DNA from: a virus
Lineage: Duplodnaviria; Caudoviricetes
Strand: one strand, 5' to 3'
IMG/VR virus record: IMGVR_UViG_3300034171_000074
Span: 1 to 48,623 of that record
DNA length: 48,623 nucleotides
Position 1 is the first letter of the stretch, and each line of letters opens with the position of its first letter. Below the pieces are notes generated by a model. It had not been told where the DNA came from and did no database searches. It saw only the letters and a list, made by a program, of their open reading frames with translations. This document shows positions 13,312-36,153 of this stretch, piece after piece. The translations under genes and the position numbers were made by a program.

Positions 13312-14244
13312 ATGGCAGATATAGAACTAACCAACCTTACAGACAGCACTAACGCTGATAATGGTACAGGTGTATTTGACAAGCTTATACAGTCAATTGA
13401 ACAGCATATTGAGTCTCAGTACAAAGCAGGACGTATAACAGGCAATGATTACTGGAGTGTTTATCTGGGGTCAATGCAGTCTGCTTTGTCAGAATCTGTA
13501 AAATTTCTTCTGAGTGAGCAACAGTCTGCAAAACAGGCCGAACTCATTAGTGAGCAGATACTGAGCGAGCAAAAGAAAAATGAGGCTGGCGGTCTCATTG
13601 ATCTTGAAAAGAAAAAGAATCAGGAACAGATTGATCTGATTATTGCTCAAACAGCTGCCCAGTACGAAAGTATTGATGCTTCGCGTAAAGACACAAACAG
13701 AAAAAATCTGCTGAACAGTAAGCAGGTTATAAAAATTGGTAAAGAAAGCGAATTGCTGACTACTCAAAATTCAGAGCTTCTTTTGAATGGCGTAGTAGAA
13801 CGGGCATTGAAAGCAGCACAAGAAGTAGCTACTGCCAGTAATGCAATTGACAACACGAACAAAACAAACGCCGATGTAGCCTTTGTAAACGCTAAAGAAT
13901 CGGATCAGATTTACGTAACAGCCAATATAAGACCTCTTGAAACTTCCAAACTGGAAGAAGAAATTGATCTTTTGCAGTCAAGGGATCTTGAGCAGCTTGC
14001 TGCTACAGTTCGTATGGATCTGGAATCGGCCAAGAAAGTTTTGTTGATCGAAGCTCAGACACTTGGATTCAAAGTAAACGGCAAGCAGAATTTGCTCAAG
14101 CAGATGTTTGAAGGTTTCGCTATCGAAACTACGACTAACGGTGCAGTCACAGCTCCAGCACCTAGTCTGAATAGCAGTGTTTCCTTGGAAATGGTAGCTA
14201 ACTCAATTTTTGATGACTTGGCACCATCGGCAGGAACTATATGA
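13312..14244 (+). CDS. N4 gp54-like structural protein
   Basis: N-terminal GTGVFDKLIQSIEQHIESQYKAGRITGNDY motif typical of the N4 gp54 family; coiled-coil body. Confidence 0.75.
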   Translation: MADIELTNLTDSTNADNGTGVFDKLIQSIEQHIESQYKAGRITGNDYWSVYLGSMQSALSESVKFLLSEQQSAKQAELISEQILSEQKKNEAGGLIDLEKKKNQEQIDLIIAQTAAQYESIDASRKDTNRKNLLNSKQVIKIGKESELLTTQNSELLLNGVVERALKAAQEVATASNAIDNTNKTNADVAFVNAKESDQIYVTANIRPLETSKLEEEIDLLQSRDLEQLAATVRMDLESAKKVLLIEAQTLGFKVNGKQNLLKQMFEGFAIETTTNGAVTAPAPSLNSSVSLEMVANSIFDDLAPSAGTI

Positions 14245-14507
14245 AGACAAAAAAAGAAGTTCTCGACTTAATTAACGAAGCAATCGAGGAAGAAAAAGGC
14301 CGTTCAGTTGGAATCGACGACATGTTTATGGATTCTGAACTGGACAGTCTGGGGGTTGTGTTAACGTTAGTAGCGTTAGAAGAAGAATTTGGTGACATGG
14401 AAGGATTTACTGAAGGTGAAGAACTACACGGAATAGAAGAACTTACTGTCAGGGACCTGGTGAAACAATGCATATTAGCGATTTCAAGTACTTCAAAGGA
14501 ACCGTAA
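14241..14507 (+). CDS. Acyl carrier protein
   Basis: 88 aa, acidic; ELDSLG phosphopantetheine motif (Ser36), LEEEFG helix II end and TVRDLV final helix; ATGA overlap with the gp54-like stop. Confidence 0.9.
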   Translation: MKTKKEVLDLINEAIEEEKGRSVGIDDMFMDSELDSLGVVLTLVALEEEFGDMEGFTEGEELHGIEELTVRDLVKQCILAISSTSKEP

Positions 14508-15298
14508 AAGAAAACGGCTACGTAGCAATACCAGACCTGAAAAGGGACCGGCCCAGTGTCGGTCAGTTTATTAAGATGGCTGATTTAGACATCGTTTTAA
14601 CCAGACCTACAGCCTTCTTGTACGTTGATGGCTTCCTGGTGTCTCAGTCAGACAACGGTATGCGAGAGCCTGTAAAAGTAAGCAAGGCTGCCATACTGAA
14701 AAGCGGTACCAGTTACATTGCCCATGAGTGGGTTCACACCTTCAAGAACAAAGAACACCTCAAGCACGTTAATATGATAACGAGTACCTGCGCTGCTGGA
14801 GTACAAGCAATCTGGGAGGCTAGAGCACTGCTTGAAAGCGGTATGGTAGAAGAGGTGATAGTGATAGGTGCTGAAAGAACTACTGACGCTACTCTTGCCT
14901 TGTTCAGTGAGCTTAGAATACCAATCACCTGCGGAGATGGGTTTGCTTACATTCGGCTTTGTAAAGGCTATGGTATCCATAACCCCGTTTGGAAGTACAC
15001 ATACCAACAAAACCCTTTCCATTTCCCGAAGGAAGTCTTGGACACCTTAATACCTGAGTACCCAGTAGATTACGTAAAACTGCACGGTACCGGCACACCG
15101 TCCAACACAGAGGGCGAATCAGGTCTGGCTGCCATAGCTACACCTATAACCTATAAGCAGGACATAGGACACACCCAGGGCGTTAGCGCACTCCTGGAAA
15201 CGTGTATGGTTTTAGACGATCCTGAAATTGTAGGAAAAATACTTGTTACGGCAAATGGTCTTGGAGGATTTTACGGTTCTTTCTTGGTGGTGAAATAA
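14468..15298 (+). CDS. Minimal beta-ketoacyl-ACP synthase (FabB/FabF-like condensing enzyme)
   Basis: TSTCAAG (Cys108), LHGTGTPSN (His206), YKQDIGHT (Lys, His235) and ANGLGG C-terminal motif; only 276 aa. Confidence 0.88.
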   Translation: MHISDFKYFKGTVKENGYVAIPDLKRDRPSVGQFIKMADLDIVLTRPTAFLYVDGFLVSQSDNGMREPVKVSKAAILKSGTSYIAHEWVHTFKNKEHLKHVNMITSTCAAGVQAIWEARALLESGMVEEVIVIGAERTTDATLALFSELRIPITCGDGFAYIRLCKGYGIHNPVWKYTYQQNPFHFPKEVLDTLIPEYPVDYVKLHGTGTPSNTEGESGLAAIATPITYKQDIGHTQGVSALLETCMVLDDPEIVGKILVTANGLGGFYGSFLVVK

Positions 15299-15786
15299 TG
15301 TTTACCACACCGGCAATAATGGGACCTGACGTAGAATTTAGAAATTGCGTTGAAGGTGACGTAGCAAGGCATTTTCAAAAAATAAAAGAGTACATTGAAC
15401 CAGAGTTTCAAGATGACCATATTAGTAAAATGAAAGATTGTGTAGAGGATGGAACAGCGTTTGTCACCAAAGGTGATGAGTGTTTTATGTACTACAAAAA
15501 AACCAAAGAAGCTTTTGCAGATGCTGTTTCAATCTACGGTAAAAACTATCCGTTGATGATGATGGCAATGATTGCTGGAATACCAAAACATGTTCCAGAG
15601 GATAAGAAAGACACAATTTTTTTGTACCTTACTCTGCACATAGGCAAGGATATAAAAGAGTACAAAGGAATGCTTTCAAAGACAGCAATATACCGTCACA
15701 GGACTAATGGTGACAGACTACTTATACGTACTGACGATCTCATAAGAAAATTTGAAAAGCTAAGGCTTAGGAGATTGGAAAAGTGA
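15298..15786 (+). CDS. Hypothetical protein, possibly GNAT-fold acyltransferase
   Basis: 162 aa; EFRNCVEGD resembles the GNAT beta1 'IRxAxxxD'; secondary-structure order is compatible with GNAT; coupled on both sides (TAATG, GTGA). The functional call is inference. Confidence 0.45.
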   Translation: MFTTPAIMGPDVEFRNCVEGDVARHFQKIKEYIEPEFQDDHISKMKDCVEDGTAFVTKGDECFMYYKKTKEAFADAVSIYGKNYPLMMMAMIAGIPKHVPEDKKDTIFLYLTLHIGKDIKEYKGMLSKTAIYRHRTNGDRLLIRTDDLIRKFEKLRLRRLEK

Positions 15787-18554
15787 GCGCAGTAATTGAC
15801 GCTATAGAAAGTGTACTAGGAGCAATCGGTGACGCAATTGAGTCTTTCGTGTCTTTTGTCTGGAACGAAATTGTACTTAGAGAATTGGGAGATGTTCTTG
15901 GGCTTTTTGGTATTGAGGATGAGACTGTAGTTACTGTATCAAAAATATCTACAAAAATGTTTGACGAAAATACTGAAGACGTAGTAAAAGCTGCAAAAAC
16001 AAGAGCAGTAATGCGGTGGCTTAAAAGTGATATTTCTTTCTGGAAGTTCGTGTATTTTGAAATGAATTTAACCAGAGGAAAGATAAATGGGTATTACAAT
16101 TTCGCAGATAAAGGTAGATACATACACGGTTTGCCTAGTATGTCTGTGCAGGGTGAAAATAAAGATGAAAGTGCTATTAAAGATGCAATAGACGTTGTTT
16201 ACTCTACCAATTCTGTACTTACATACAGTTCTAACAGCTACCCAACTTCTGAAGAACACTTCAAATTCCAGCTTCAAGGCGGTACCACAAACTATAAGCC
16301 AGGTCTTAATCAGCTGACTTACGATAATGAGTGGGGAAAAACATTTAGCAACTGGGCTTGGGGCAGTGTTACGTACCTGAGTGGATCTAATAACTATGAA
16401 ATATTAATAACCAGGGTAGCTGAAAGAGCTTCGTTTTGGATAGAAGGACCATCCGAAGTAACAGAAAGCAGTACTGTTAATCTAATTGTAAGATCTAACA
16501 GACCAGTTCCTGTAGGGGAAAGTGTAACAGTAAATTTCACCTATTCTGGAACAGTAGATTCAAGCCAGTACACAGCACCGGCATCGGCTGTAATGGCTGG
16601 TGGTTCAAGCTCTGTATCAATAGCAGTATCAATAACAGAAGACGCAATAAGCGAGTCTTTGGGTAATATAGTAACAACCGTAGATTCGATAACAAATACG
16701 AACGGAGCTTTTGAAGATTTAGTAATCACATTAGACTCAGTAGATACTTCTGTTTACGATAACGATTCTTTGGTTTTGACTCTGGATTCTATCTACGTAA
16801 ATGAGTCAGATACTACGGTGACGGTACCAATAAAGCTGACCCAGGATGTTTCCGGAGGGTTTACAGTAGATTATACACTGCCTGAAGGAACAGCAATTGC
16901 AGGTGTTGACTACGACGGTACTGGAGGTACGTTAACTTTTGCAGGAACTGCAGGAGAAGTTCAAAACATAGTCGTACCAATGACAGCCGATGTATCAACA
17001 GGATCGAGAGAAGACTTCACAGTTGCTTTGCAAAACTGCTCAGATGTCAGCGTAGATACTTCAAGAGTGGCAACTGTAACTATTATAGATTCTGACCCTG
17101 GTGGACCAGCTCCTGATACATCAGTTTATGTAGCAACATTTATAGAGCCACAGTTTGTGGACGAAAGAGCAATGGTGTGTAAATACTACACCAGTGGTCA
17201 AAGTTCTACCGATTGGTACTACTGGATCTACTATTACAGCTCAAACCTGTATCCAGACATTGATCCTTTAAATACTGTTATTAGTGAACTTGAAATGCTC
17301 CCTGTTGGCATTATAAGAAAAGACAAAGTAAACGTAGATTTTGACAAAGATGGAGAAGAATATAAGACAACAAAAAACCTTTTGAGATTGGTAGATCTAA
17401 ACGTAGACGATCTTATAGCGGGTGTAGAAGCTAACCCAGATAAAGATACGGTAGATGACGCTTACGTAAATTTTGCAGTTAGCCCAAGTGATACAGGGCC
17501 AGAAGTTGCAAAACTTCTTTATCTAACGTTTTATGAAATTATAGAAGTTAGAGGTATTACCTCTAATTCTGGAAAGTACACTTCTGCCTTCAGTGAGCAA
17601 GATGTTAACAACGGAAATGTTTGGACAAATCACAGTTACGTTAAAGACATATCTGGGTCTATTGGCACCGTAGGTATTCATACACACGAAATTGCGTGGA
17701 CAAGTTACGAAAACAAGCTAACTTTAAGATTTCAAAAAACGGCTATCAGCTACGATGAAATCGTAATAGAAAACATGAACAGCATGTCGAGTATAAAGTA
17801 CGACGGTTACCATAAAGCAGCGTTTAACACACTTAAAGACAGTTCATTCACAATTCCACTGTCCTGGTACGTTTATGATCAGTTAACTAATGAAGAACTG
17901 ATGAAGGTTTACCAGAAAATATTTCGTGTTGATTTTTATTCGATCGAAGTAACTCACTTAGCTTGGTACGAAACTGCGGCATTTTTCAGCTTTATAAAAT
18001 TTGCTTTGATAATAGTGTCTATTGTACTTACCGCTATTACGTTCGGAGCAGCAAGTGGTTTTTACGCAGGTGTTTGGGCAGTAATTCAGCAGGTTGTTAT
18101 AAGTTATGTTGTAATGGAAATTGTAGTAGAGATTGCAGCGGCTACCGGAAGTGCTGCTTTAGCAGCTGCTATAGGACTTATAGCTGCATTTATAATGAGA
18201 GACTTTTCAGGTCTTGAGCAAGTTGGGTTCTTTACCGCTGAGGGTGTGACATCGGCTATAACTGCATACTCAGCTGGATTGGGCACAGTGTACAAAGTAG
18301 AACTTGAAGAGATGACGGCAGAAACCGAAAAACTTATGGAGGAAATGAAGGAAAAAGAAGATTACTATGAGAATAATTCCCCAGCAAGCAATTCTATATT
18401 AGACGCATCTTTTTACGCATCATTAAGTTCTACAGAAACCATGCTGTATCAATCCAGAGACGCACAGTACGACTATAACGCTCAATTGACAGGTGCTTAT
18501 GATAGACTTGTTAAAAATTACCACAGTGCACTTTTAGACTTGGGCATACATTAA
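15783..18554 (+). CDS. N4 gp53-like tail/ejection-associated protein with two Calx-beta domains and C-terminal hydrophobic helices
   Basis: 923 aa; motifs YIHGLP, WYYWIY...YP, NPDKDTVDDAYVNF, AWYETAAF followed by TM-like segments; syntenic with N4 gp53. Confidence 0.7.
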   Translation: MSAVIDAIESVLGAIGDAIESFVSFVWNEIVLRELGDVLGLFGIEDETVVTVSKISTKMFDENTEDVVKAAKTRAVMRWLKSDISFWKFVYFEMNLTRGKINGYYNFADKGRYIHGLPSMSVQGENKDESAIKDAIDVVYSTNSVLTYSSNSYPTSEEHFKFQLQGGTTNYKPGLNQLTYDNEWGKTFSNWAWGSVTYLSGSNNYEILITRVAERASFWIEGPSEVTESSTVNLIVRSNRPVPVGESVTVNFTYSGTVDSSQYTAPASAVMAGGSSSVSIAVSITEDAISESLGNIVTTVDSITNTNGAFEDLVITLDSVDTSVYDNDSLVLTLDSIYVNESDTTVTVPIKLTQDVSGGFTVDYTLPEGTAIAGVDYDGTGGTLTFAGTAGEVQNIVVPMTADVSTGSREDFTVALQNCSDVSVDTSRVATVTIIDSDPGGPAPDTSVYVATFIEPQFVDERAMVCKYYTSGQSSTDWYYWIYYYSSNLYPDIDPLNTVISELEMLPVGIIRKDKVNVDFDKDGEEYKTTKNLLRLVDLNVDDLIAGVEANPDKDTVDDAYVNFAVSPSDTGPEVAKLLYLTFYEIIEVRGITSNSGKYTSAFSEQDVNNGNVWTNHSYVKDISGSIGTVGIHTHEIAWTSYENKLTLRFQKTAISYDEIVIENMNSMSSIKYDGYHKAAFNTLKDSSFTIPLSWYVYDQLTNEELMKVYQKIFRVDFYSIEVTHLAWYETAAFFSFIKFALIIVSIVLTAITFGAASGFYAGVWAVIQQVVISYVVMEIVVEIAAATGSAALAAAIGLIAAFIMRDFSGLEQVGFFTAEGVTSAITAYSAGLGTVYKVELEEMTAETEKLMEEMKEKEDYYENNSPASNSILDASFYASLSSTETMLYQSRDAQYDYNAQLTGAYDRLVKNYHSALLDLGIH

Positions 18555-18568
18555 AAAGGTATATTAAA

Positions 18569-19039
18569 ATGGCTGAAAACGGATCTTATTATCAACCCTT
18601 TGAAGTTAACAGTGGATTGCCTTCACTGGCTAATAGGAATCAAGTTCCAGGTACAGGGATGAGTTCTTATACAGCTTATCCATCTTTAGACGTAAGACAA
18701 AGCCTGGGTAAAGGTGGATCTGCACCAACAGCAGGAATGCCAGATCCTGCAATGGGTGGTTTAGATGTTAACGGTGGTGGTGGTATGCCATTTTGGGGTG
18801 GTGACAGTATGATTGGTAATATGGGACAAGGCATGAACCTTATAGGTAGCGGTGTATCTCTTGTAGGTATGCTTCAAAACATGAAAGATGCACGCAAAAA
18901 CAACGATATTAATCGCAAAAACATCGGTCAACAGATGTCTCAGTCAAAGGTAGCATTTGATCGCAGTGTTGCACGCCAAGATGGAACGTCTGAAGCTATT
19001 CGTCAAAGAAATGAGCGCGTAGCTCAAATGAATCAGTAA
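18569..19039 (+). CDS. Small ejection (internal virion) protein, N4 gp52 position
   Basis: 156 aa, Gly/Met-rich with a hydrophobic segment and C-terminal coiled coil; no Cys; synteny. Confidence 0.6.
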   Translation: MAENGSYYQPFEVNSGLPSLANRNQVPGTGMSSYTAYPSLDVRQSLGKGGSAPTAGMPDPAMGGLDVNGGGGMPFWGGDSMIGNMGQGMNLIGSGVSLVGMLQNMKDARKNNDINRKNIGQQMSQSKVAFDRSVARQDGTSEAIRQRNERVAQMNQ

Positions 19040-21064: not shown

Positions 21065-24028
21065 ATGGCGACGTTAGACGAGATAATGGCACAGAGGTCA
21101 TCAATGAGCTTGGCTGCTCCTGTTCTTGCTCCTGTACCTAAAACAAAGCTTCAAGAAAAGAAAGACAGGCTTTTTGGAGCACCAGAAGTACCTACTATTT
21201 CAGAAGATTCAGGTAACGGCCTTGAATCTTTGATGAATGGTGGCAATTCAAACAGAACACCAGGCTTGGGTGACCGATTTGAGTCTAGCCTTTATAAGTC
21301 TGGTGGCAGTCTTGCCGACATGGGTAAGAGCATTTCCAATTCTATGTTTGATACCCAGTTTGACGATTCAGTAGAAACAGGCTGGAGCCGCCAATCTGAC
21401 CCTGAGAACCGTCAAGCATCGGCAGCTGATGAAATGGCAGGGGTAAGTTTTGATCAGCGTCAGGCTGTTAACCAGGATCTGCAAGGTGTTATGAACACCT
21501 ATGTAGAAGACGGTTTACTTCCAGCGTTTGGTAAAGCTATACCTGAAGCATTTGGTGTTATAGCGGATTCAGGCTCATCTCTTGTAGAAATGGCTGCAGG
21601 TGCACTTGCGGCTCCTATTGGTGGTGCTGGTGTAGCACTGTTGGCCAAAAAAGCCAAAAACACTTTTGACCTTATTGGTAAAATTGATGATTCTTACGAC
21701 AAGGCAAAAGAATCCATCAAAGCGGTAAAATTTGCAAAAGATTTGGCAGGTACCGTAGCAAAAAAATCTACACAGGCCAGTGTTTTAACAGCCGACCTGG
21801 TTCAACAAACCAAAGTTGAGTACGAGCAAGAAACCGGCGAAAAGATGAGCCCTCAAAGGCTTGCCGGAACAACTGTGGCTATTTTGGCCACGTCTGCTAT
21901 GCAGATTCAAAGTGTTAAAATGCTCTATTTGCCAGGATCAAAAAGTTTTGTTGGTAATACTGTAAAACAAAAATTCACCAACGAAATGAAACAGATGTCC
22001 AAGTACCTGGATCAAGGTGCTGTTAAATCTATCGCTAAAAGAATTGGTGGTGGTTTAGGAGCAGTATTTGTAGCAGGTGGTGCAGAAGCTGTTCAGGAGT
22101 ACTCTCAAACCTGGGCTCAGATTCTAAGTGTGCACATGGACCCAGAAGAAGCTGGTGGGCTTTTTGCTTCAGCGTATAAAGAGCTTAATGACCAAGACAA
22201 TCAGAATGAGGCTGACGTAGCCGCTATTCTCGGCGCAGTAGCTGGTGGTGGTATCAAATCTACTCTATCAGCGCCTGGATTAGCGGTTGGTGCAGTAGCT
22301 GACGTAGCTGTAGCAACGGGTGACAAGATCGTTAAAAGCTCTTACAACGCTGCCCGTGACAGGCTAAACCCTGCAGACCAGGAAGCTGACATTGAAGAGC
22401 GTAAAAACCTACGTGCAGCAGCTCAAGAGATTCAAACAGAATCTGCAAGAAAAGTATCTGTAGTAGCTGACTCAGGAAATTTTCAAAACGTTACTGACGA
22501 AGCTGTTAAAGCTGAAATGGTTAGAGTAGCTGCAGGTAGAGATTTGTCAGATCCGAAAGTATTTGAGTCTGTGTCTAACAAACTTGTACGTTCTTATAAA
22601 AAAGACAGTGTTAACGCCCTTACTGAAGAAAAGCTTCAAAACGGTTTTATAGCAGGAAGGAAAGTTGTAAAGCGTGTAGGTGATGACTTTGCAAAAATCC
22701 TGGATCTTGCTCCAGAAGAAATTGAGGCTGTAAAAAATTACGTAGTCAGCAAAGTAGAATCTACCAAAGAGTTTGGTCAAGCCTTTGCAGATGACATTAA
22801 GAATTTTAAGTCTTCTGCAACGTTAGGCGTAGCCGAAGCAGCTGTAGATTTCATATCGGAATCCGTAGAGGAAAACACCAAAAAAGGTGTTAAGTACGCA
22901 AACAGCAAAGAGTCTGTGCAGAAACTTAAAGGTCGTTTGGAATCACTCAACTCGGTCAGTGCAGCCAGGTCTCTGGCAACATCGTTAGAAACTAACTCTC
23001 CTGACAACAGCAAAAATGCTGTCAGAGAAATTAGAAGCTGGGCTGATCAGAAAGAAAAAGATCAAAAGCGGGTAAACCTCAAAAACGATTCTGCCCTAAC
23101 TTACGATAATCTTGGTGACAGCGTAAAAGAAGCCAGCCAAGCAGGGGCTACTGTAACCAACCCAAGAGCCTTGAGCATAGAACTGTCCAATGCCAGAAAA
23201 GGCAGCATAGAGGACATGGAAACTCTGCAGTCCCTGGAAAACGCTCTTGAAAACTACAAGAAAACGGATTTTAGTAAAACGGGTGAAGCTACCCTGAGTG
23301 AAACTGCCGTTAAAAACATCGCCAGAAAGCTTTCCAAGGCACGGACAGAGCTTGAATCCAGACCCGATGCGTCTGTAACAAGTAAGGTAAAAGCCGCTGC
23401 TAGTACAGTTACAGGAGCCGCTAGCAAGGCAACTGCCTGGGCTAAGCCAGCTACTGACAAACTGAAAAGTATGGGCATTACCACAGTAGATAAGCTGATT
23501 GATCGTGTCACCAACGAAGACGTTTTTGTATCAGAAGACACTGATGTACAAAGAGCTGCAATATCAGGAATTAATAAAGTTATAAAAAATATTCTTGAAA
23601 GCGAAGAAGGTAAAAGTGGCGATAACGTAGATCAAGAAGCTTTGCTCCAATCAAAAACAGCCATAATAGTTGGAGAAGATGGAGTTTTTGCAAAAAAGAC
23701 TATAAAAGGACTTTCAAAGGTTTTCAAAACAAGTAACCCAGATTACTTGATAGCTGTCATGGAAAGAATATTCCCAGCTGTAAGAGAACCTTCTTTAGAA
23801 AAGATTCTACGTGACCGTATGTCAGAAGTGCTTAAAGATTCTGCTGAGCCTAACACTGAGCCAACACGGCAAAGAAAGAAGAGTGCTAACGAATCCGACA
23901 CCAACAATCAAGATGATTCTGATGTTGTTATAGAAGAAGACGGTGCTGTTTTTAGATCTGCTCCTAACATGTCTAAAGTTAATGCTAAGATGGTAGAAAT
24001 TCTGGGCAACCACATTTGTAAGGTCTAA
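21065..24028 (+). CDS. Internal virion protein equivalent to the N-terminal (injection/membrane) domain of N4 vRNAP
   Basis: 987 aa (N4 vRNAP N-domain is ~997 aa); Gly/Ala-rich hydrophobic segments and GAEAVQE motif; directly precedes the polymerase gene; single Cys at position 985. Confidence 0.7.
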   Translation: MATLDEIMAQRSSMSLAAPVLAPVPKTKLQEKKDRLFGAPEVPTISEDSGNGLESLMNGGNSNRTPGLGDRFESSLYKSGGSLADMGKSISNSMFDTQFDDSVETGWSRQSDPENRQASAADEMAGVSFDQRQAVNQDLQGVMNTYVEDGLLPAFGKAIPEAFGVIADSGSSLVEMAAGALAAPIGGAGVALLAKKAKNTFDLIGKIDDSYDKAKESIKAVKFAKDLAGTVAKKSTQASVLTADLVQQTKVEYEQETGEKMSPQRLAGTTVAILATSAMQIQSVKMLYLPGSKSFVGNTVKQKFTNEMKQMSKYLDQGAVKSIAKRIGGGLGAVFVAGGAEAVQEYSQTWAQILSVHMDPEEAGGLFASAYKELNDQDNQNEADVAAILGAVAGGGIKSTLSAPGLAVGAVADVAVATGDKIVKSSYNAARDRLNPADQEADIEERKNLRAAAQEIQTESARKVSVVADSGNFQNVTDEAVKAEMVRVAAGRDLSDPKVFESVSNKLVRSYKKDSVNALTEEKLQNGFIAGRKVVKRVGDDFAKILDLAPEEIEAVKNYVVSKVESTKEFGQAFADDIKNFKSSATLGVAEAAVDFISESVEENTKKGVKYANSKESVQKLKGRLESLNSVSAARSLATSLETNSPDNSKNAVREIRSWADQKEKDQKRVNLKNDSALTYDNLGDSVKEASQAGATVTNPRALSIELSNARKGSIEDMETLQSLENALENYKKTDFSKTGEATLSETAVKNIARKLSKARTELESRPDASVTSKVKAAASTVTGAASKATAWAKPATDKLKSMGITTVDKLIDRVTNEDVFVSEDTDVQRAAISGINKVIKNILESEEGKSGDNVDQEALLQSKTAIIVGEDGVFAKKTIKGLSKVFKTSNPDYLIAVMERIFPAVREPSLEKILRDRMSEVLKDSAEPNTEPTRQRKKSANESDTNNQDDSDVVIEEDGAVFRSAPNMSKVNAKMVEILGNHICKV

Positions 24029-24030
24029 AA

Positions 24031-27000
24031 ATGGCAAATTGCATAAGCATTGAAGATTATCTTGATACGTTGAGAGAGATTGCCCAAGAGGTAGAAATAA
24101 ACCAACTTGGTGACCAAGATACTCGTGTAAACGTTTGGAACATCTCTGATACTGACGTAGCTAATATGTTAGAAAACTACCGAGTGCCTCAGTCAGTAAG
24201 TTCCCAATCTGATCGTTTAACCAGAAAATTGGAAGGCGCATTAGCCGGTATTTCACCAACTCACAAGCAAAAAGTAAAAACTCTTGTTGATAGGCTTAAA
24301 AGTAAAAGTTCTTTGGGAGAAAGCAGCGATAAATCTGCACGCTCTCAAATGGTCGCTTTGAAAGAAATTATTTCTTCTATTGCAGGTGAAGTAAATAAAG
24401 CAAGCAACATGAGAGTGCCGCTTACTGTAATAAGTCCTGGCAGTGTGCCTAACATTCCTATGGCAAGATTGGCTGCTATGATCGGTCGTAAAGTCCTGTA
24501 CCAAAATGGGTACAGGTCTACCGGCTTGGGTGAAGAAAACAGCGCAGCTAAAGCTGAGCACATGTATTACCTGGTGGGCGAAAGGATTCTTGAATCTTTA
24601 CAAGATGGTGGTTTTGTAAAAATTAACGAAGCTAACAGCGGTCAATCTACGCTTATTGATTACATTGATGGTGATAAAAAAAGAATGCCTCGTGGTCCTG
24701 ATGCCCACACCACTAATATGAAGTCTGTAACGTTAATTCCAAAATCTCTTGACCTTTCTACAAAAGAAGGCAGTGCTGATTTAGATACGATTCTAGGCAA
24801 AACATCCGAACAATCTGATAGCGTATTTGGATCTTACCTAAAAATGATTGATGCAGTGTCTTATGTCACTGTTCCGGAAACAATCATTTTTCCAAAAACC
24901 GGATTCATGAGTTACGACCCTGACACATTCACTAAAAAAAGTTCGTACAAGGGCAATAAAGAATTATTGAAATCGGTTAGAGAAATAGAAAGCAAACCGC
25001 TGTACATGAACAGTGACGTACATAGCTTGTTTGCCAACATTGCAAAAGAAACAGAGAATATTAGTAAAAGTGCCTCATCTTGGATAAACAATAATTTAGA
25101 CGCTCTGTCACTAAGCAAGCTGTTTAACATGGAACAGAGTAATGATATTGAGTCAGATAAAGCCAGTAATATGGGCAGAAATCTTTCTAAGTCTACGCCT
25201 ATAGATGACGTAGTTGAGTACTTTTCAAAGTTTAAAGATAACCCTGCACTGTTCTTCAAAATGTTCCTGGGACGCAATGCCAGGGCTTACATGGAGAACT
25301 CAGTACTTAACCCGCAGACTTCCAAAAGCATGAGATTTGCTATGGAAGTTGAACCCTATGCTATGGAAGTTGGATCAGACGTTTATAAGTACTACGTAGA
25401 TAAGGTAGCCAGATCTACTCTGCCTAAAGGCAAAGACGGTACCGTACCTGCTCAAACACTGCTTAAAGAAGACATGAGCAGTGAGCCTATGGGTGCTGAA
25501 ATTCAAAAAGCTTTGAACGCTTACAACAAATACAGTGAAGCAAGAAGTGCTAACAGTCAGCTAACCGCTTTGAGGGCAATGAGCAATTCCGGTCTAAAAT
25601 TTGAAAACTTTTCTGATCTTTTATCTTCTGTAAAAGCGATTAAAGGCATTCGTGAAAGTCTTGATTCCAAGCGGATAACGTCTACCTACATGGTATCCAG
25701 TGACGCTACCGGTTCGGGTGGTTTGTTAACACTGTTGCAAGCTATTGGTTCTACACAGGAAGAAGACATTACCAAAGTCTTGAAAAGTTTGGGTGTGTTT
25801 AAAAGTAACGAAGAACAGGATCTCGCAGAAGTTAAAGACATATACGGCATTCTTACAAACGCTTTACAGCCGTTTTTAGATGAAGAACCGGATAGTGATG
25901 GTATCTACGAGCTTTCATTAGATCGGAAGCTTAATGAAGAAACCGTTAGGTCTGTTTTAACATCGGTCAAAGACGATCTATTTGACGGGGATTTTCGAGA
26001 ACTCTCCAAGTCACCAACGATGACATTCATCTACGACCAGTCTGAAGATGGGGCCGTAGAATCTATGGCAGAAACTTTTACTGAAAAACTTTTAGGTAAG
26101 CTCAGAAACAACAATGCTGTTAGTCCGGAGCTAATTAAACTTCTTAATGATCTTTTACCTACAAAGGTAACTACTCAAAAAGATGTCAATGATTTGAAAA
26201 AAACCGATAAAAAGTTAAAAGCGTCACTGGAACAAGGATTTATAAATTCCGGAGTTGGTAATTTTTTGTACGATGCTTTGGGTACGACTGTTAGAAGAAA
26301 GTATTTGGACAACCACAAATCTATGGCTAAAAGGGTATTTAACCTTATTAGCCAAAACGTAGGTGATCCACAGTTCAAAGTGATGCCTGCAGCCTGGGTA
26401 GTTGAACGGGCTGAGTCAGGTGGAAGCATTGAACCTACACTAGCAGAGTTGAGGGAATACGGCGTACCGTTGACCAAACTTTATGATGTTGCTCGTGAGG
26501 TTGACGGTGGTGACGTTGTTTTGACCCGTGAAGACCGTCTTGCAGAAACTGTAATGAACACTTCGATGATCCACACAGCCGATACTGCAGCTATGTTTGG
26601 AAGCCTTAAGGGGCTACCTACGAAGCACAATACCGGAGTCATAACGGTACACGATGCGTACTTCTCCAACGCCCATTTGGTCATGGAGAACGACTCAAAA
26701 TACATAGCAGAGACTCTGAAAGTTGCTCAGCATTTTGATATCCAAGAGCAGGTTATGTTAGCTATTAAAGCTTTTTCAGGTAAAAAAACTGACGAAGATA
26801 AGTCTTTTGATGGTATACTTGAGTTTACCAGAAAGCGTAAAGCTACCAAACAACAGGCTCTAAAGGACAACTTTGATGCAGAAACGAATAGTGTTATTGG
26901 CGACGGAAATGGCTATCGAAATCTTGAAGTCTCAGGTGTCAAAGCAAAAGAGGCAACACCCAGAACTACAAAGCAAAAAATCGAAGGAACGCAAAGCACG

Positions 27001-30000
27001 AATAGCAGCCCGAAAGTTAGTCCAAAAAGACAGGTAAGTAACCGTGATGCTGCTACGCAGAGAGCTTTGGAAAAGCTTTCTGCTAAGTCACCTATCATTG
27101 CGGGATTCCTGAAAAGCACTAACAAGTCGGCAGTAGTTAAAGGCACAGTAGATTCTTTCCAGTCAGATACCGACACAATCACCATTTCTGACACTGCAAC
27201 CATAGCTGACATTGAACACGAAATTGTTCACAGCTACACCGTTGGCATGATCGAAAAAACGTTTGAAGCGGATAAAAATTCTGAGTTTGTTGAACAGGTT
27301 GAACTGATAACAGGCAAAGGTAGCTTCAATCAAAATCTTCGTGACATGAAGTACATCCAGAAAGCGTTAGCTAAAATTGATGCAAGCAAGCTTTCCGGAG
27401 AAACCAAAAACCGGATTGTTTACGCCAAAAACCAGGCTAATGAAAAAACAGCTTTGGGTGAGTTTGTCTCCATAATGAGCACTGAACCTTCAGTAGCTAA
27501 AGAGGTTTATAAGCAATTTGGATCTGGCAACACCTTAAAAGGAATTATTGGCCGAGTTGTTAAGAGCATCCAAAGGATTTTAAAAAGTCCTACAGCTGCG
27601 GATCTAAGCATGGACACAGTAGATGCTGAGATTCTGTACAGTTCTATAAACGGTCTCATCGAAGGTGGTAAGTCGATGAGGGAAAATTCTTACGAGCAAA
27701 ATTTGCAACTACAAAAGGAATTTGGTGAAGACCTATATTCTGGGTCTCGGGCAGGTGACTACGTAAAAAAGTCTCGTGATTACTTCGAGCTTTTAAACAG
27801 TTCAATGGCCAGGTCTATAAATGATCCAGCGGTACGAAAAATAGGATCTTGGACAGCATCTCTGGATGGGATTGTGCGTGACAAGTTTCCTGTCTACAGT
27901 CAGGCAGCTGACTACATGAAAGGCATCTACGATGGATCTGAGGCGCTTCAGAGCTTGGTGCACAAAATCACCAACAGCAACATCAACAACGAAACCAAAA
28001 ACGAAGTTCTGTCTACGTTTTCGAGGTTGAGGGCTGAGCGTAACGACCTGGTAAGCAGAGAGCTTCGTAAGTTTAAAAAACTTACTTTTAACATGACCGA
28101 AGGCCAACTCAGAAGCTATCGTGATTTCACTCAAAAAATGGCCATACAGGATTACTTTCTGCTTGCTGAGACCGTTACCGATATCGATGCCAAAGTAGAT
28201 GAGCTAAAAGCATCTTTAAAGTCAGACGCAACTAACAAGTTAGATACCATTGTAAAAATGAACGTTGATGGTGAGATTACCAGCAAGACTTACTACAACG
28301 TCAAACAGATCATGGGTTCAGCAGGTGATAACCAAAACAACGCCAGGGCTTACGTAGCTTTGCGATCAATTCAGGAATTGGGACAAGATCGGTTCACTGA
28401 ATTTTTGGGCAACACTGAGCTTTTGACGCTTATCAAAGACACTGTATTGGCTAACGAGTCTCTGACTTTTGAAGGTGGAATTAATACTTCCAAACTTCGA
28501 GACAACGGCCTGGCTGAAAATTTTGAAACTCCCATCGTGAAACGGGCAGTTCATCCTAATGATATGCGGTTTATGGCCAAGTACGAAAAGGATGGCTGGA
28601 AGCGTTTAAAAACCTCAGGTGATGAAAACCAGCCAGTCATATTGTACAAGTCTGAAATTGATCAGACGTATCAAGAAGGTGTGTTTACAGACATTCGTAC
28701 ACAGACTGCAGACATACCTGTTACAGAGGCTTTCAAGTCGTTTAACAACGTGGTTAAGACAGCTGATGGAAGCTACGTCATGGTCCTGAGTGAAGACCAG
28801 AGACATAAGCTAGGGGCCAGTAAGGACCCAAGCCAGAGCCTGGTCAGAACAATGGCACATAATATGACCATGAAAGAGTCAGAAATTATCAGGAATAAGT
28901 TACTGGAGAAAGAGACCTATTGGGATTTGAAATCTAAGGATACCGACAGCTTGAAAAGGTTGGTTAAAGATCCCAGTCGAGATAACCCTTGGTTCTTGGG
29001 ATCAACTAACGATTTTGATATGTCTAAGCACCCAGAGTTGCTGAAGCACTACACACCCGTTACAAAAAGTCTTTCTGACCACAATCGGTTTGATGAAAAA
29101 ATTCAGTACGTCAGAAAAGACATTGGCTACTGGTTGATCGGTGCCTCAGAACGGTCTGTGGTACGTGATCCTAAACTACAGTGGGCGTTGAGAATTACCA
29201 AAAACATCGTATCCGGAATGAAGATAGGCTTGATTGCGCTGAACCCTGTCAAGATTCTTAACGACAACGTATCGAACATCACGTACCTGGGCATCAGAGG
29301 CGTAGATCCGGTGTTCCTGCAAAGGCAGTACCGAAAAATCAGCACTGAGTTTAACGAGTACCACGGTATCCGTAACAGGTACATGGATCTGAAAGTACGA
29401 AGCTATTCAAATCCTGGTGACTATAAAGATCAGATGGATAAAATTCAGAAAGAACTTAAAAACCATCCCGCAAACGGGTTTATCGAAAGAGGGTTTTTAA
29501 ATTCACTCGGATCAGAATTGATCATGAACACAGACGATCCCTCATCGGGATTCAAAAGCGATCTTGATGCTATTCTAAAAAAGGTATTTCAAGACAATGA
29601 AGGTAAAAACAACTCAGTTGGAAGACTTCTCATTAAGAGTGCTAAGTGGAACGTAGGTTTAGAAGAACTTCTTGAAACTGTTAGTCCTGTGTTTGGACAG
29701 GTAGGGTCTACAAAAGAAGTTGAAAAATCGATCAATGAAATAGCGGATCGTTGGAAAGACATTAAAACCAAGGAAGACGCAGTAGCGTACATGCACCAGT
29801 ACCTAAACAGTCCGGACAGTGAGTTTGTTAAGCTGGGCAGTCACATGACGGATCTCAGTGACGTGATGGCTAAAGAAACGCTGTACCGTCATCTGATGGG
29901 CAATGGCATGAGCGCTAAAAAAGCAGAGTTGGAGGTTATTGATTCTTTTCCTGACTACAAAGAGGCAATGCCGGTTAAAGTTCGTCAGTTAAGCGATGTG

Positions 30001-30237
30001 GGCATTCTTATGTTTCCTTCGTATTGGCTGAGGATTCAGAAAACGATTTACCGGATGATCAAAGACCGTCCGGTAAGTTTCGGGATTGAAGAAGCTATAA
30101 ACGAGTTGGTTGGTTTGGAAGGTTCTTCAATAGAAGACGCGAATATCATTTCCAAATTTAATTCTCATTTGGGTATATTCCACAACCCCTGGGCAGATCC
30201 GGGAGTCGGCAACATAGTACCGACTCACGTATTCTAA
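24031..30237 (+). CDS. Virion-encapsidated single-subunit (T7/N4-type) RNA polymerase plus C-terminal domains
   Basis: GRNAR..NPQTSKSMR (R418), motif A SDATGSG (D558), motif B RELSKSPTMTFIY (R656, K660, Y668), IHTAD, motif C VHDA (D875); HExxH at residue 1063; TAAGGT SD. Confidence 0.9.
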   Translation: MANCISIEDYLDTLREIAQEVEINQLGDQDTRVNVWNISDTDVANMLENYRVPQSVSSQSDRLTRKLEGALAGISPTHKQKVKTLVDRLKSKSSLGESSDKSARSQMVALKEIISSIAGEVNKASNMRVPLTVISPGSVPNIPMARLAAMIGRKVLYQNGYRSTGLGEENSAAKAEHMYYLVGERILESLQDGGFVKINEANSGQSTLIDYIDGDKKRMPRGPDAHTTNMKSVTLIPKSLDLSTKEGSADLDTILGKTSEQSDSVFGSYLKMIDAVSYVTVPETIIFPKTGFMSYDPDTFTKKSSYKGNKELLKSVREIESKPLYMNSDVHSLFANIAKETENISKSASSWINNNLDALSLSKLFNMEQSNDIESDKASNMGRNLSKSTPIDDVVEYFSKFKDNPALFFKMFLGRNARAYMENSVLNPQTSKSMRFAMEVEPYAMEVGSDVYKYYVDKVARSTLPKGKDGTVPAQTLLKEDMSSEPMGAEIQKALNAYNKYSEARSANSQLTALRAMSNSGLKFENFSDLLSSVKAIKGIRESLDSKRITSTYMVSSDATGSGGLLTLLQAIGSTQEEDITKVLKSLGVFKSNEEQDLAEVKDIYGILTNALQPFLDEEPDSDGIYELSLDRKLNEETVRSVLTSVKDDLFDGDFRELSKSPTMTFIYDQSEDGAVESMAETFTEKLLGKLRNNNAVSPELIKLLNDLLPTKVTTQKDVNDLKKTDKKLKASLEQGFINSGVGNFLYDALGTTVRRKYLDNHKSMAKRVFNLISQNVGDPQFKVMPAAWVVERAESGGSIEPTLAELREYGVPLTKLYDVAREVDGGDVVLTREDRLAETVMNTSMIHTADTAAMFGSLKGLPTKHNTGVITVHDAYFSNAHLVMENDSKYIAETLKVAQHFDIQEQVMLAIKAFSGKKTDEDKSFDGILEFTRKRKATKQQALKDNFDAETNSVIGDGNGYRNLEVSGVKAKEATPRTTKQKIEGTQSTNSSPKVSPKRQVSNRDAATQRALEKLSAKSPIIAGFLKSTNKSAVVKGTVDSFQSDTDTITISDTATIADIEHEIVHSYTVGMIEKTFEADKNSEFVEQVELITGKGSFNQNLRDMKYIQKALAKIDASKLSGETKNRIVYAKNQANEKTALGEFVSIMSTEPSVAKEVYKQFGSGNTLKGIIGRVVKSIQRILKSPTAADLSMDTVDAEILYSSINGLIEGGKSMRENSYEQNLQLQKEFGEDLYSGSRAGDYVKKSRDYFELLNSSMARSINDPAVRKIGSWTASLDGIVRDKFPVYSQAADYMKGIYDGSEALQSLVHKITNSNINNETKNEVLSTFSRLRAERNDLVSRELRKFKKLTFNMTEGQLRSYRDFTQKMAIQDYFLLAETVTDIDAKVDELKASLKSDATNKLDTIVKMNVDGEITSKTYYNVKQIMGSAGDNQNNARAYVALRSIQELGQDRFTEFLGNTELLTLIKDTVLANESLTFEGGINTSKLRDNGLAENFETPIVKRAVHPNDMRFMAKYEKDGWKRLKTSGDENQPVILYKSEIDQTYQEGVFTDIRTQTADIPVTEAFKSFNNVVKTADGSYVMVLSEDQRHKLGASKDPSQSLVRTMAHNMTMKESEIIRNKLLEKETYWDLKSKDTDSLKRLVKDPSRDNPWFLGSTNDFDMSKHPELLKHYTPVTKSLSDHNRFDEKIQYVRKDIGYWLIGASERSVVRDPKLQWALRITKNIVSGMKIGLIALNPVKILNDNVSNITYLGIRGVDPVFLQRQYRKISTEFNEYHGIRNRYMDLKVRSYSNPGDYKDQMDKIQKELKNHPANGFIERGFLNSLGSELIMNTDDPSSGFKSDLDAILKKVFQDNEGKNNSVGRLLIKSAKWNVGLEELLETVSPVFGQVGSTKEVEKSINEIADRWKDIKTKEDAVAYMHQYLNSPDSEFVKLGSHMTDLSDVMAKETLYRHLMGNGMSAKKAELEVIDSFPDYKEAMPVKVRQLSDVGILMFPSYWLRIQKTIYRMIKDRPVSFGIEEAINELVGLEGSSIEDANIISKFNSHLGIFHNPWADPGVGNIVPTHVF

Positions 30238-32765: not shown

Positions 32766-33023
32766 TTATCTGTTACATTTTTTATGCGATAGCTTTAGTA
32801 GAAATAGGTACCCAGGCTTATCTTCTTTTTTAGAAAAATAGTGTTCTATGGTAGCCATTTCTTCAACATCATTTACAGGCTCTCCCATAGTTGGAAAGAG
32901 CATAGGTTTTTCACACCAGCAACATTTTTCACCGTAGAGTGTGCGAAGGATATTACGAAAACGATCTCTTCGTGACTTGCTGATATAAAGACCGTTATTT
33001 TTACGTCTTTCAGTTTTTTTCAT
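32766..33023 (-). CDS. Small HNH endonuclease-like protein
   Basis: CCWC...ATIEH...LSHKKCN zinc/HNH pattern; ATGA overlap with the polymerase stop. Confidence 0.7.
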   Translation of the reverse strand: MKKTERRKNNGLYISKSRRDRFRNILRTLYGEKCCWCEKPMLFPTMGEPVNDVEEMATIEHYFSKKEDKPGYLFLLKLSHKKCNR

Positions 33024-34795
33024 AAGATTGCCAAAACCTCTTCTATTTGTTGGATAGAAGCATTGTTTGGAATTTTATGAAGATCCGCCCAATTTAGTCC
33101 AATTTCACCTTCAGCTTCGTTGTGAATTTCCTCATCTTGCAAATACTGAACAGTCATCACTTCGATAAGGTTTTCATTAACCCATTTTATTATTTCAGGA
33201 TCACGGTAGGTTTGCGTGTAGATACTGTCGTAGATTGTAGATTGTACCTGAACATACTTTTCCAGATTTTCCTGCTCTATGCGGTAGTTCAGTTCGTTCA
33301 CAGCGATGAGTGTTAGGATGCTCCAAAACTGTACGGTTGCGTTGTGCAAGGTTCTGATATCGTTATGAGCGTTGTCTGTATAAAGACGACAACCAAGACC
33401 CAGGTGGATGTAACCGTTACTGGCAGCCGTTGGAAGAACATAGTTATCACGGTAATCAGTAATTCCTGGATACAGAACATTGTGGTACCTATCGAAAATC
33501 TCCTGAGTTATAACACCTCCTTTGTCTACATCTGGAAATCCACCATAAGCAAGTTTGAATGTTGGAGCTTTAGATTTTTGACGAATATCTTTTATAACAG
33601 AGTTTCCTTCGTCATTTTTTTGCATAAAGGCTTTAACAAAATCAACGTTATTGTTAAATTTTCCGATAGTTTTTTCTATCTCTTCTGAATAGTATCCACA
33701 CGCATTTAGAGAATGGCCATCAAGACCTTCTTTAAATACGTTGCACTTATTCACATCTCCAGAAAGATTGGATATTACACGGTCTTCCAGTGCAGATAGA
33801 TCTGCTGTGTAAATTACAAAGTCTTTCTTTGCTGTAAAGCACCGTTTCAGTGGCTTTGCGTAGATTGATTTACTGCTGGGAGCATTAAGCAGATTTGGAG
33901 AATTTGATGTATTTCTAAACGATTTGGCACCAAACAGTTTTATTTTACCGTGAAGAACTTTATCAATAGTGAATGTATCAAACGCTTTTATAAAATTGCT
34001 TTTTATGATGAAACTAAATGAGTTGTCGATCATAGCGTCAAGCATTTCAATTAAAACTTCATCTTTTGAATCTTTACGAAGTTCTTCAATTTGATCACGA
34101 CCCCATGAAGGTTCTCCTGTGTCTTTGGAGTAAGACCTTGCAGGAATCTTCAACATCTGAAAAATCTCACAAGTTTGCTTTGAGCTGTTAGGGTTGAAGG
34201 CTTCCAGACTAACTTTCTGCTTCTTTTTCTCGTAGCGTGGCCTGTTCCAAAGCTCAAGTTTGTACTCTGCCAGGGAGCGCATAGCTTTCACTGCAGTAGT
34301 GCAATTTGCGCTTATCCGCTTATCTATGACACTGGACAAAAAAGGATCATTCAAAAAGACGTTGTATTCCTTTACGTCTTTAACAGACCACTTATTACGG
34401 ACATCTTTATCACGGCCTATGGCCAGTAGATGCGTGTTGACCAACCAGGTACGGTGAGTCATGTCTGTTTCTTTGAATGGCTTTAAATAATGATCAAGGG
34501 TGCGAACAGATTTGGTAGCTTCTTCTTCATGCTCTCTCTGAGCCTTTGGCCTACGCATGGTCTCCTGGTACTTAATAACGTAAGGGTGTTTGCCTAAACG
34601 TTCGTATACAGTCTCTTGAACCTCATCAATGAGCGTTCTGAGATTTTCAACAGCTTCTGATTCAATCAATAGACCTGTATCCACCATTTTTATCATGTCA
34701 GGGATAAAGTGGCTGGCAAAGTTATCATAGAAATAACTGGGTCCAGGATCATGGTCACAAGGAAAAGGAACAGGAAGTCTTTCAAAAGGGCGCAT
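33020..34795 (-). CDS. Family A DNA polymerase, polymerase domain
   Basis: FNPNS, RNTSNSPNLLN, motif A ADLSALEDR, DGHS, motif B RQKSKAPTFKLAYG, motif C TIYDSI. Confidence 0.93.
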   Translation of the reverse strand: MRPFERLPVPFPCDHDPGPSYFYDNFASHFIPDMIKMVDTGLLIESEAVENLRTLIDEVQETVYERLGKHPYVIKYQETMRRPKAQREHEEEATKSVRTLDHYLKPFKETDMTHRTWLVNTHLLAIGRDKDVRNKWSVKDVKEYNVFLNDPFLSSVIDKRISANCTTAVKAMRSLAEYKLELWNRPRYEKKKQKVSLEAFNPNSSKQTCEIFQMLKIPARSYSKDTGEPSWGRDQIEELRKDSKDEVLIEMLDAMIDNSFSFIIKSNFIKAFDTFTIDKVLHGKIKLFGAKSFRNTSNSPNLLNAPSSKSIYAKPLKRCFTAKKDFVIYTADLSALEDRVISNLSGDVNKCNVFKEGLDGHSLNACGYYSEEIEKTIGKFNNNVDFVKAFMQKNDEGNSVIKDIRQKSKAPTFKLAYGGFPDVDKGGVITQEIFDRYHNVLYPGITDYRDNYVLPTAASNGYIHLGLGCRLYTDNAHNDIRTLHNATVQFWSILTLIAVNELNYRIEQENLEKYVQVQSTIYDSIYTQTYRDPEIIKWVNENLIEVMTVQYLQDEEIHNEAEGEIGLNWADLHKIPNNASIQQIEEVLAIL

Positions 34796-35510
34796 AACTT
34801 AAATGCTCCTGTAATTCTTCGTCGCTAAAATTTCTTTTGGTCAGTAACAAGTTTTCTTTTATGTATTTGTCCCTATATATAGCGGCATCTAATGCGGTTT
34901 TGTGGTAGCAGCTCATGATTCGTTTTTTTCCAATAGTAATCTGGCTAGTCCAAGGATTTTTCATATGAGATATACGTTTAGGTGCAGTTACACCAACAAA
35001 CCCAGAAGTATTTTTTACACCTAAAATCTTACCTGTATTAGACTCTACTCTACCTTCAACACCATTAGTTGTGTGGGGTAGTTTGTTGTCTTTTACATAA
35101 ATGTCGTAAGCAATAGCAGATTCCTCAGAAGTACCGTAGAACCCAACTGTTACAGTTTTATTTTTTACACTTATAGATGTTTCCCATTTTTCGTACATCT
35201 TATTCCAACTTACACCCCTAAAACCGGACTTGTTATGACTGTAGAGAATTCGGGTATTAGCTGACTGCACTAGCTGATTAGTCCACCTACAGTTACCAGG
35301 ACGGTAATCACCATTATTATCTATTCTGTCTATTGAAGACTTATCATTATAACCGTTAGACAAAGCCCAGATTTTAAATTCCTCATAAGAATTTTTCCAC
35401 TCTTCGCACACTGCTATGTGAGAATACTCAAGTTTTCTGGTACACCTATATTTCATACCCTTCCATATGTTATTTAAACGATTACCAGTATCACCGTGTG
35501 TCTTGTTCAT
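34782..35510 (-). mobile_element. Free-standing HNH homing endonuclease with two AP2-like DNA-binding repeats
   Basis: WKGMKYRC, VCEEW, SIDRIDNNGDYRPGNCRW; NKSGFRGVSW...SAIAYD and NTSGFVGV...AAIYRD; overlaps both polymerase ORFs. Confidence 0.88.
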
Positions 35511-36153
35511 TTCTATGCTCCATTATCTGTTGATAAAGTAGCATTGTAGCACATCCATCAATAGAGCAGTATTTTAAAAATTTTGGACTTTTAGGGTTAT
35601 CTGGTTCGTACTCGTCATAAAGTGACCAGGTAGGATCGTACTGACTTTTCATCAGTTCTTTAAGACCAACTTTTGCTTTCCAAATGTCTACGTGATTTAT
35701 AAAACACTTGGACATCAGAGAAGTGTCTACGTAGTTTTTTGGAAAGCAACGAACACGGTTGTACATGATCTGTAAGTCAAAAAGAGCGTTATGTATTAAC
35801 AGCAGCCCTTTATAATACGCAATGAACTTCCATATAAGCATTTCTGTATGGATAGTATCCGGTATCAATATTTCACTGTGGTCTTTAGAAAGACCAAAAA
35901 TGAAATGGGTAGTGACTACCAACGATGGGAAACTGAGACCAGAATTTCCAGCTACCATACGATACTGCTTAATCTGATCGATGGAGAGGTCCTGGTCCTT
36001 GTCTAAAAGCTTCTGTGCTGTACTCCTATCCTGCTTTGGGTAAACTCCTGACGTTTCAGTGTCCAGGCTCATAACGGGCTTCTCAGCTAGTTTGTTGAGC
36101 TTCTTTTGGATGTTGTAACGAGTTGCAGTAACACAATAGCTAACTTTAATCAT
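35491..36153 (-). CDS. 3'-5' proofreading exonuclease domain of the family A DNA polymerase (separate ORF)
   Basis: ExoI LDTETSG, ExoII HNALFDL, ExoIII YCSIDG; GLKEL motif. Confidence 0.88.
   Translation of the reverse strand: MIKVSYCVTATRYNIQKKLNKLAEKPVMSLDTETSGVYPKQDRSTAQKLLDKDQDLSIDQIKQYRMVAGNSGLSFPSLVVTTHFIFGLSKDHSEILIPDTIHTEMLIWKFIAYYKGLLLIHNALFDLQIMYNRVRCFPKNYVDTSLMSKCFINHVDIWKAKVGLKELMKSQYDPTWSLYDEYEPDNPKSPKFLKYCSIDGCATMLLYQQIMEHRNEQDTR

Follow-up and report, generated by a model that had tools for sequence, protein, structure and literature searches.

The DNA analysed here, a stretch of 48,623 nucleotides referred to as the window, represents part of the genome of an N4-like (Schitoviridae-type) phage, in which PHROGs profiles name the portal, major head, tube, plug and virion RNA polymerase (vRNAP) proteins. 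Three open reading frames, all on the plus strand, lie between the tail tube gene (13312-14244) and the tail plug gene (15783-18554). The features of this region are as follows.

13312..14244, plus strand: tail tube protein, N4 gp54-like, 310 aa (phrog_2050, E 3e-29; tblastn).
14241..14507, plus strand: acyl carrier protein (ACP), 88 aa, Ser36 codon at 14346-14348 (PF00550, E 0.0019; TIGR00517, E 0.0025).
14468..15298, plus strand: minimal FabF/FabB-type ketosynthase (KS), 276 aa, Cys108 codon at 14789-14791 (residues, AF2, Foldseek).
15298..15786, plus strand: predicted GNAT-fold acyltransferase, here called X, 162 aa, basic (AF2, Foldseek, VIA).
15783..18554, plus strand: tail plug, N4 gp53-like, 923 aa, with a Calx-beta insert (phrog_2220, E 3.5e-33; PF03160; alignment with N4 gp53).
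15783..15908, plus strand: N-terminal extension of the plug, 42 residues, acidic and amphipathic, the proposed acyl acceptor (co-occurrence with a GNAT gene).
18569..19039, plus strand: probable gp52-like ejection protein, 156 aa, an alternative acyl acceptor (position between the plug and the gp51/vRNAP-like genes).

A start overlap (ATGA at 14241) joins the tube and ACP genes, the ACP and KS reading frames share 40 nt, KS and X meet at TAATG (15296-15300), and X and the plug at GTGA (15783). The preliminary description of this DNA had reported three overlapping genes between the gp54-like and gp53-like genes, and the reading frames and all four junctions were verified. It had also stated that gp54 adjoins gp53 in N4; in the N4 record gp54 is directly followed by gp53, as it is in pYD6-A, phi50-12, D505, KPP21 and G19. 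Compared with two relatives of about 89% KS identity, the three cassette genes have dN/dS values of about 0.06-0.11, and the plug extension has one of about 0.14. ACP, KS and X are therefore maintained genes under purifying selection and not chance reading frames.

The first gene of the cassette encodes an acidic protein of the usual ACP size (~80 aa) with the DS(L) phosphopantetheine serine. Its pI is 4.15 and its net charge is -15. Ser36 lies within a DSLG motif, and D35 and S36 were unchanged in 34 of 34 aligned homologues, in line with the intact DSL serine described earlier. The PF00550 (PP-binding) score of 18.9 bits was just below the cut-off of 20.8. Neither a phosphopantetheinyl transferase (PPTase) nor FabD or FabG could be detected in the 44 proteins scanned of the window, a partial genome, which agrees with the earlier remark that PPTase, malonyl transacylase and reductase are missing there; PPTase (PF01648) was likewise absent from all four cassette records searched, two of which have terminal repeats. 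Formation of holo-ACP would need a host PPTase. ACP-like genes lacking the serine were observed beside X in three phages (L098:5615-5845, L107:5801-6061 and L117:5600-5854), and their products have lost the acidity too. The net charges of these three proteins are +3, -1 and +2, and those of the partner X proteins -11, -2 and 0, in a sample of which two members are sister taxa, whereas ACPs with the serine range from -3 to -18 with a median of +4 for the partner X. This charge co-variation fits docking of an acidic acyl-ACP on X. The serine was lost only where KS is absent (3/5, versus 0/34 with KS). Since ACP without the serine and X are kept together in these three phages, the carrier chemistry is not always needed.

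For KS, 217 homologues were found, and C108, H206, K230 and H235 were invariant in the 61 that were aligned. The AF2 model (pLDDT 93.5) matched KAS II, PKS and FAS ketosynthases in Foldseek with TM of 0.6-0.7. Both the residues and the predicted model are those of a thiolase-fold enzyme with Cys-His-His and Lys, and the assignment as a condensing enzyme with an intact Cys-His-His set holds. KS is, however, not a full-length FabF/FabB enzyme (~410 aa): it has 276 aa and scored 25 bits against the TIGR03150 cut-off of 494. It is about 130 aa shorter than FabF, PKS and FAS ketosynthases, with 11-16% identity in structural alignments. A scan of genome contigs for bacterial relatives gave one weak match of 27 residues. 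Two cultured Alteromonas phages that keep ACP and the GNAT have no KS; judged by gene content, KS is dispensable in cultured relatives.

The X family comprises 211 representatives at 50% clustering. X had no match in Pfam, PHROGs, NCBIfam or a PDB sequence search, and none at or above 0.9 in the ESM Atlas. The AF2 model (pLDDT 88.4) is predicted to have a GNAT fold. Its top Foldseek matches were all GNAT-type (best E 1e-3, TM about 0.4-0.5), and nearly all of the top 50 rows of a VIA search were GNATs (Z 9.6, rmsd 3.4, 131 aligned), with the N-terminal acetyltransferases Ard1, NatD and Naa50 among the top rows tied within 1 Z. Thus, the fold comparison suggested in the preliminary description gave a ketosynthase fold for KS and a GNAT fold for X, and the 162-aa protein, then called a putative acyltransferase, is predicted to be a GNAT-fold acyltransferase. 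The R/Q-x-x-G-x-G/A CoA pyrophosphate motif of acetyl-CoA-type enzymes, sought anywhere in the sequence, is present in 3 of 40 X members, and its rarity is compatible with an ACP-bound donor. X is net basic in 32 of the 40, and no catalytic residue was invariant across these sequences.

The cassette is real, conserved and widespread. Scans selected by KS gave 83 loci after one identical to the window was dropped, with 65 distinct KS sequences. ACP was found upstream of KS in 43/43 testable loci and an X-family gene downstream in 37/46. In seven of the nine loci without X there are genes of a second family that resembles GNATs and whose members are linked to one another (for L079, Pfam GNAT E 2e-4); neither family was seen in L023 and L064. 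With the tube gene at the cassette in 28/32 testable loci and the plug gene in 28/35, the synteny search proposed earlier bore out a conserved gp54/gp53 position. The tube gene had tblastn matches in 456 phage records, the listed ones being N4-like. The cultured Alteromonas phages PT11-V19 and R22Y (OP751378, PP212876) have the order tube-ACP-X-plug with an extended plug and no KS, and in L104 and L114 X stands alone in the slot, with no ACP. In two further phages a P22 gp14-type (DUF2824) GNAT lies between the tube and an extended plug (L115:6134-6595 and L123:6047-6520); the DUF2824 match was above the cut-off in one of the two, and the family fills the X slot (L115). Extended cassettes were seen in phages of different architecture (L076:1594-4238, L080 and L081), with a FabA/Z dehydratase added in L076 and L080 and a membrane protein included in L076 and L081. 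AD45-type phages (L094, L142, L168 and L170) have a second tube-like gene of about 290 aa between tube and plug, and no cassette there.

Related gene sets also occur elsewhere. The unrelated podophage MW202545 has a longer cassette of ACP, KS and a 146-aa gene between its tail and putative ejection genes, standing before a Gly-started amphipathic protein. A second, longer ACP-KS type, related to that of MW202545, is found with an X-like gene of about 100 aa directly upstream of the portal in G004 (L178:3812-5426) and L190. In G008 (L196:4921-6691) and G007 (L197), the genes upstream of the portal encode an ACP, a 147-aa membrane protein and a FabF-like KS. These two phages have no evident GNAT and no plug extension, and the slot is variable, being filled by other genes in the siblings G009, G012 and G013; one slot gene of G009 resembles an Asp/Arg hydroxylase by eye. 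Phage ACP-KS clusters can therefore serve other ends.

The flanking proteins have known counterparts. In N4, gp54 is described as a 12-mer tail tube and gp53 as the tail plug, present in one copy, which closes the tube with a hydrophobic knot; the plug is proposed to be displaced yet stay tethered, and gp52 and gp51 insert into membranes (PMC13434306). A plug homologue, gp74, is described in phage DEV (PMC12892993). The 156-aa protein after the plug had no profile match in Pfam or PHROGs, and it is called gp52-like because of its position. The Calx-beta domain of the window's plug is inserted at residues 333-438; the PT11-V19 plug (695 aa) seems to be without this region, and the R22Y plug has 919 aa.

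Alignment of the plugs revealed 42-56 extra N-terminal residues in those next to a cassette, ahead of the glycine motif that starts N4-type plugs; over all plugs with an adjacent GNAT-type gene the range is 42-69 residues. With few exceptions the extension is acidic and amphipathic, and N4 and five further cultured phages without a cassette have plugs that lack it. We tabulated 61 plugs from the KS-selected set and from a set picked by tube similarity and not by cassette (the best 80 of 531 loci); the rows were chosen by hand, leaving out near-duplicates, most short fragments and the AD45-type architecture. The extension was present in 32/32 plugs with an adjacent GNAT-type gene versus 7/29 without one, the other 22 of the 29 having no extension. 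The 32 consist of 23 with ACP-KS-X, two with ACP-X, three with X beside an ACP lacking the serine, two with X alone and two with the DUF2824 type. Together with the truncated L101, L145 and L150, the seven make ten extended plugs that lack an adjacent GNAT. One of the seven, G004, has the different ACP-KS-small-gene cassette upstream of its portal. G001, a 71-kb record that has direct terminal repeats, falls within the cassette clade; its extension is shorter and less hydrophobic, and searches of the record detected neither ACP, KS or X nor a Pfam GNAT.

Plug residue 2 was considered as a targeting signal and rejected, as Gly or Ser at this position is common to cassette-less plugs (21/22). 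Several cassette-less plugs, those of L093 (N4 gp53), L096, L105 and L092, begin M-G-L-F-S-(S/K)-K, a start that resembles the eukaryotic myristoylation consensus. Residues 1-8 of N4 gp53 are unmodelled (PMC13434306).

In trees of the plug core, the full cassettes all fall into a single well-supported clade, with the KS losses nested inside. Well-supported branches force just one change for the extension, so the association between GNAT and extension may partly reflect ancestry, and a single origin of the extension is compatible with the trees. The 32/32 plugs therefore do not stand for independent events. An independent gain of cassette and extension in L129 versus the L149-type phages was rejected, since the branches are long and the point at which they join shifts between trees; it is further weakened by the extension-less relatives G007 and G008, which have an ACP-KS cluster of their own.

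From the observed genes, residues, synteny, selection and co-occurrence, and from the predicted folds, we infer the following route. A PPTase of the host would convert the ACP to its holo form at Ser36, and KS would load or extend a chain on the phage ACP from host acyl- or malonyl-ACP. Where KS is missing, host FAS enzymes would supply the chain; some relatives have a FabA/Z dehydratase in addition. The basic X would dock the acidic acyl-ACP and, during virion assembly, transfer the chain to the N-terminal amine of the plug's amphipathic extension, acylating Ser2 or Gly2 after Met removal; in the window the acceptor would be the alpha-amine of Ser2. The acylated amphipathic helix might then act as a hydrophobic anchor of the single-copy plug, sealing the tube tip or gripping the outer membrane on displacement.

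The preliminary description judged it more likely that the cassette builds or relays an acyl chain onto a virion protein, and named HlyC-type enzymes for comparison. HlyC and the other TAAT enzymes have a GNAT-like fold and acylate internal lysines of proteins in an acyl-ACP-dependent manner, using host ACP. They resemble the proposed route in the fold and in the donor. Unlike them, the cassette has a dedicated phage ACP; the HlyC Pfam family had no match in 40 X members, no HlyC or ApxC was listed among the top fold rows, and 13 of the 23 extensions of full cassettes contain no Lys. Given the missing family match and the extensions without Lys, HlyC-type lysine acylation was set aside as unlikely. 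N-alpha acylation fits better, because the best fold matches of X are general GNATs and N-terminal acetyltransferases and because most of these extensions lack lysine. The more general claim fared better: the predicted GNAT fold, the conserved position and the co-occurring plug extension make a role in virion lipidation plausible. Among the acceptors named earlier the adjacent plug is favoured, because the hydrophobic N-terminal extension that co-occurs with the GNAT gene is found on it. The purpose given at the time, membrane penetration, is less certain; gp53 is a single-copy plug proposed to be displaced and tethered in N4, so anchoring or sealing is equally plausible.

We put the chance that ACP, KS and X carry out acyl-ACP-dependent N-terminal acylation of the plug extension at about one in two. 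We counted in its favour the synteny, the co-occurrence of extension and GNAT gene, G004, MW202545, the charge co-variation, the loss of the ACP serine only where KS is absent, the DUF2824 slot, the N-terminal acetyltransferases among the fold matches and the known GNATs that acylate peptide termini, and against it the extensions without a GNAT, G007/G008, the residue 2 pattern, a possible shared ancestry and the ACPs without the serine. Three alternatives were weighed against it. The same acyl-ACP/GNAT chemistry might act on a different protein of the virion; the gp52-like outer-membrane channel and other ejection proteins are candidates. By analogy this would suit the membrane insertion of N4 gp52 and gp51 (PMC13434306), the MW202545 cassette directly before putative ejection genes, and the acetyltransferase-like IVP-A genes, which precede IVP-B in T7, P22 and related phages and whose product is non-structural, as in T7, yet needed for morphogenesis (PMC4819975). 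However, the feature that co-varies with the GNAT slot sits on the plug, and gp52-like N-termini show no such change by eye (unquantified); another acceptor is therefore unlikely. X and ACP might instead be a non-catalytic assembly chaperone, covering the plug's hydrophobic extension for as long as the tube has no cap, with acyl-ACP playing a structural part and no chain being transferred. The persistence of ACP-like genes without the serine (L098, L107 and L117) and of X-only slots (L104 and L114) would agree with such a role, and so would the lack of an invariant catalytic residue across 40 X sequences and a CoA motif that is mostly missing. Yet the KS catalytic residues and the ACP serine are invariant in all full cassettes and FabA/Z dehydratases have been added, which implies that chains are built and not just bound, and we consider a chaperone improbable.

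The product of the cassette could also be a host-directed lipid or small acyl-amide, serving to remodel the membrane or LPS, to exclude superinfecting phages or to increase fatty-acid flux, with the late-operon site only setting the timing. The ACP of R22Y has been called an auxiliary metabolic gene (PMC11705849), as has prophage acpP (PMC8224337); the ACP-membrane protein-KS sets of G007 and G008, in a variable slot without a GNAT, and the membrane proteins of L076 and L081 point the same way. This reading does not sit easily with overlapping reading frames at a fixed tube/plug slot (28/32 and 28/35 testable loci), with an ACP that is divergent and below family cut-offs, or with the co-variation with the plug extension. 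We regard a product acting on the host as having a low probability.

Acylation of the plug would have parallels in known systems. IVP-A GNATs (T7 gp13 and P22 gp14) are likewise small acetyltransferase-like genes between tail and ejection genes, and a DUF2824 protein fills the exact slot of X in L115. Unlike them, X lies ahead of the plug and is accompanied by an ACP and a KS of its own; neither X nor its 40 aligned members matched the Pfam families of T7 gp13, which we take to be PF11090, or P22 gp14 (DUF2824, PF11039). In lipolanthine/goadvionin and selidamide maturation, a GNAT moves a long acyl chain to a peptide N-terminus or side chain, and for goadvionin and the lipolanthines the chain is built by dedicated FAS/PKS enzymes before the GNAT attaches it to the peptide N-terminus (PMC8842026). 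These GNATs differ in belonging to bacterial secondary metabolism and acting on short processed peptides, whereas the acceptor proposed here is a virion protein of about 900 aa, and X showed no sequence link to the RiPP-lipidation GNATs. FabF/FabB and AcpP of type II FAS, and the acpP auxiliary metabolic genes of phages, share the Cys-His-His KS fold and the DSL carrier motif with the cassette. The differences from type II FAS are the short KS, an ACP under the cut-offs, the lack of a detected FabG, FabD or PPTase and the place of the gene set inside a tail operon. Myristoylated entry proteins exist in non-enveloped animal viruses, and an acylated plug, if real, would by analogy be their counterpart in a bacterial virus.

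The open-licence papers searched (supplements excluded) contained no account of the cassette as a system and no report of a tailed phage that uses a carrier and enzymes of its own to lipidate the proteins of its virion. That tailed phages lipidate their own virion in this way, a phage ACP, ketosynthase and GNAT fatty-acylating the N-terminal amphipathic helix of the tail plug, is a proposal to which we give slightly less than even odds. If true, podophage tail assembly and entry would gain a lipid step, and morphogenesis would become the assigned role of many phage acpP/fabF 'auxiliary metabolic genes'. The proposal would in that case also suggest the IVP-A GNATs of T7 and P22 as acyltransferases for tail-tip or ejection proteins, and provide a three-gene, 1.5-kb kit for protein N-acylation. 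Because the cultured Alteromonas phages (OP751378 and PP212876) carry ACP, X and an extended plug, acylation of the plug is directly testable; no passage on mass spectrometry was found in the R22Y paper (PMC11705849).

Two other genes of the window are split. The virion RNA polymerase region consists of a 987-aa reading frame (21065-24028) and a 2068-aa reading frame (24031-30237), whereas N4 has a single protein of about 3,500 aa. A split is also seen in PT11-V19 and probably in R22Y, whose vRNAP has 2,083 aa (PMC11705849). The DNA polymerase (33020-36153, minus strand) is divided into an exonuclease part (35491-36153) and a polymerase part (33020-34795) by an HNH/AP2 endonuclease gene (34782-35510), and a GIY-YIG gene follows.
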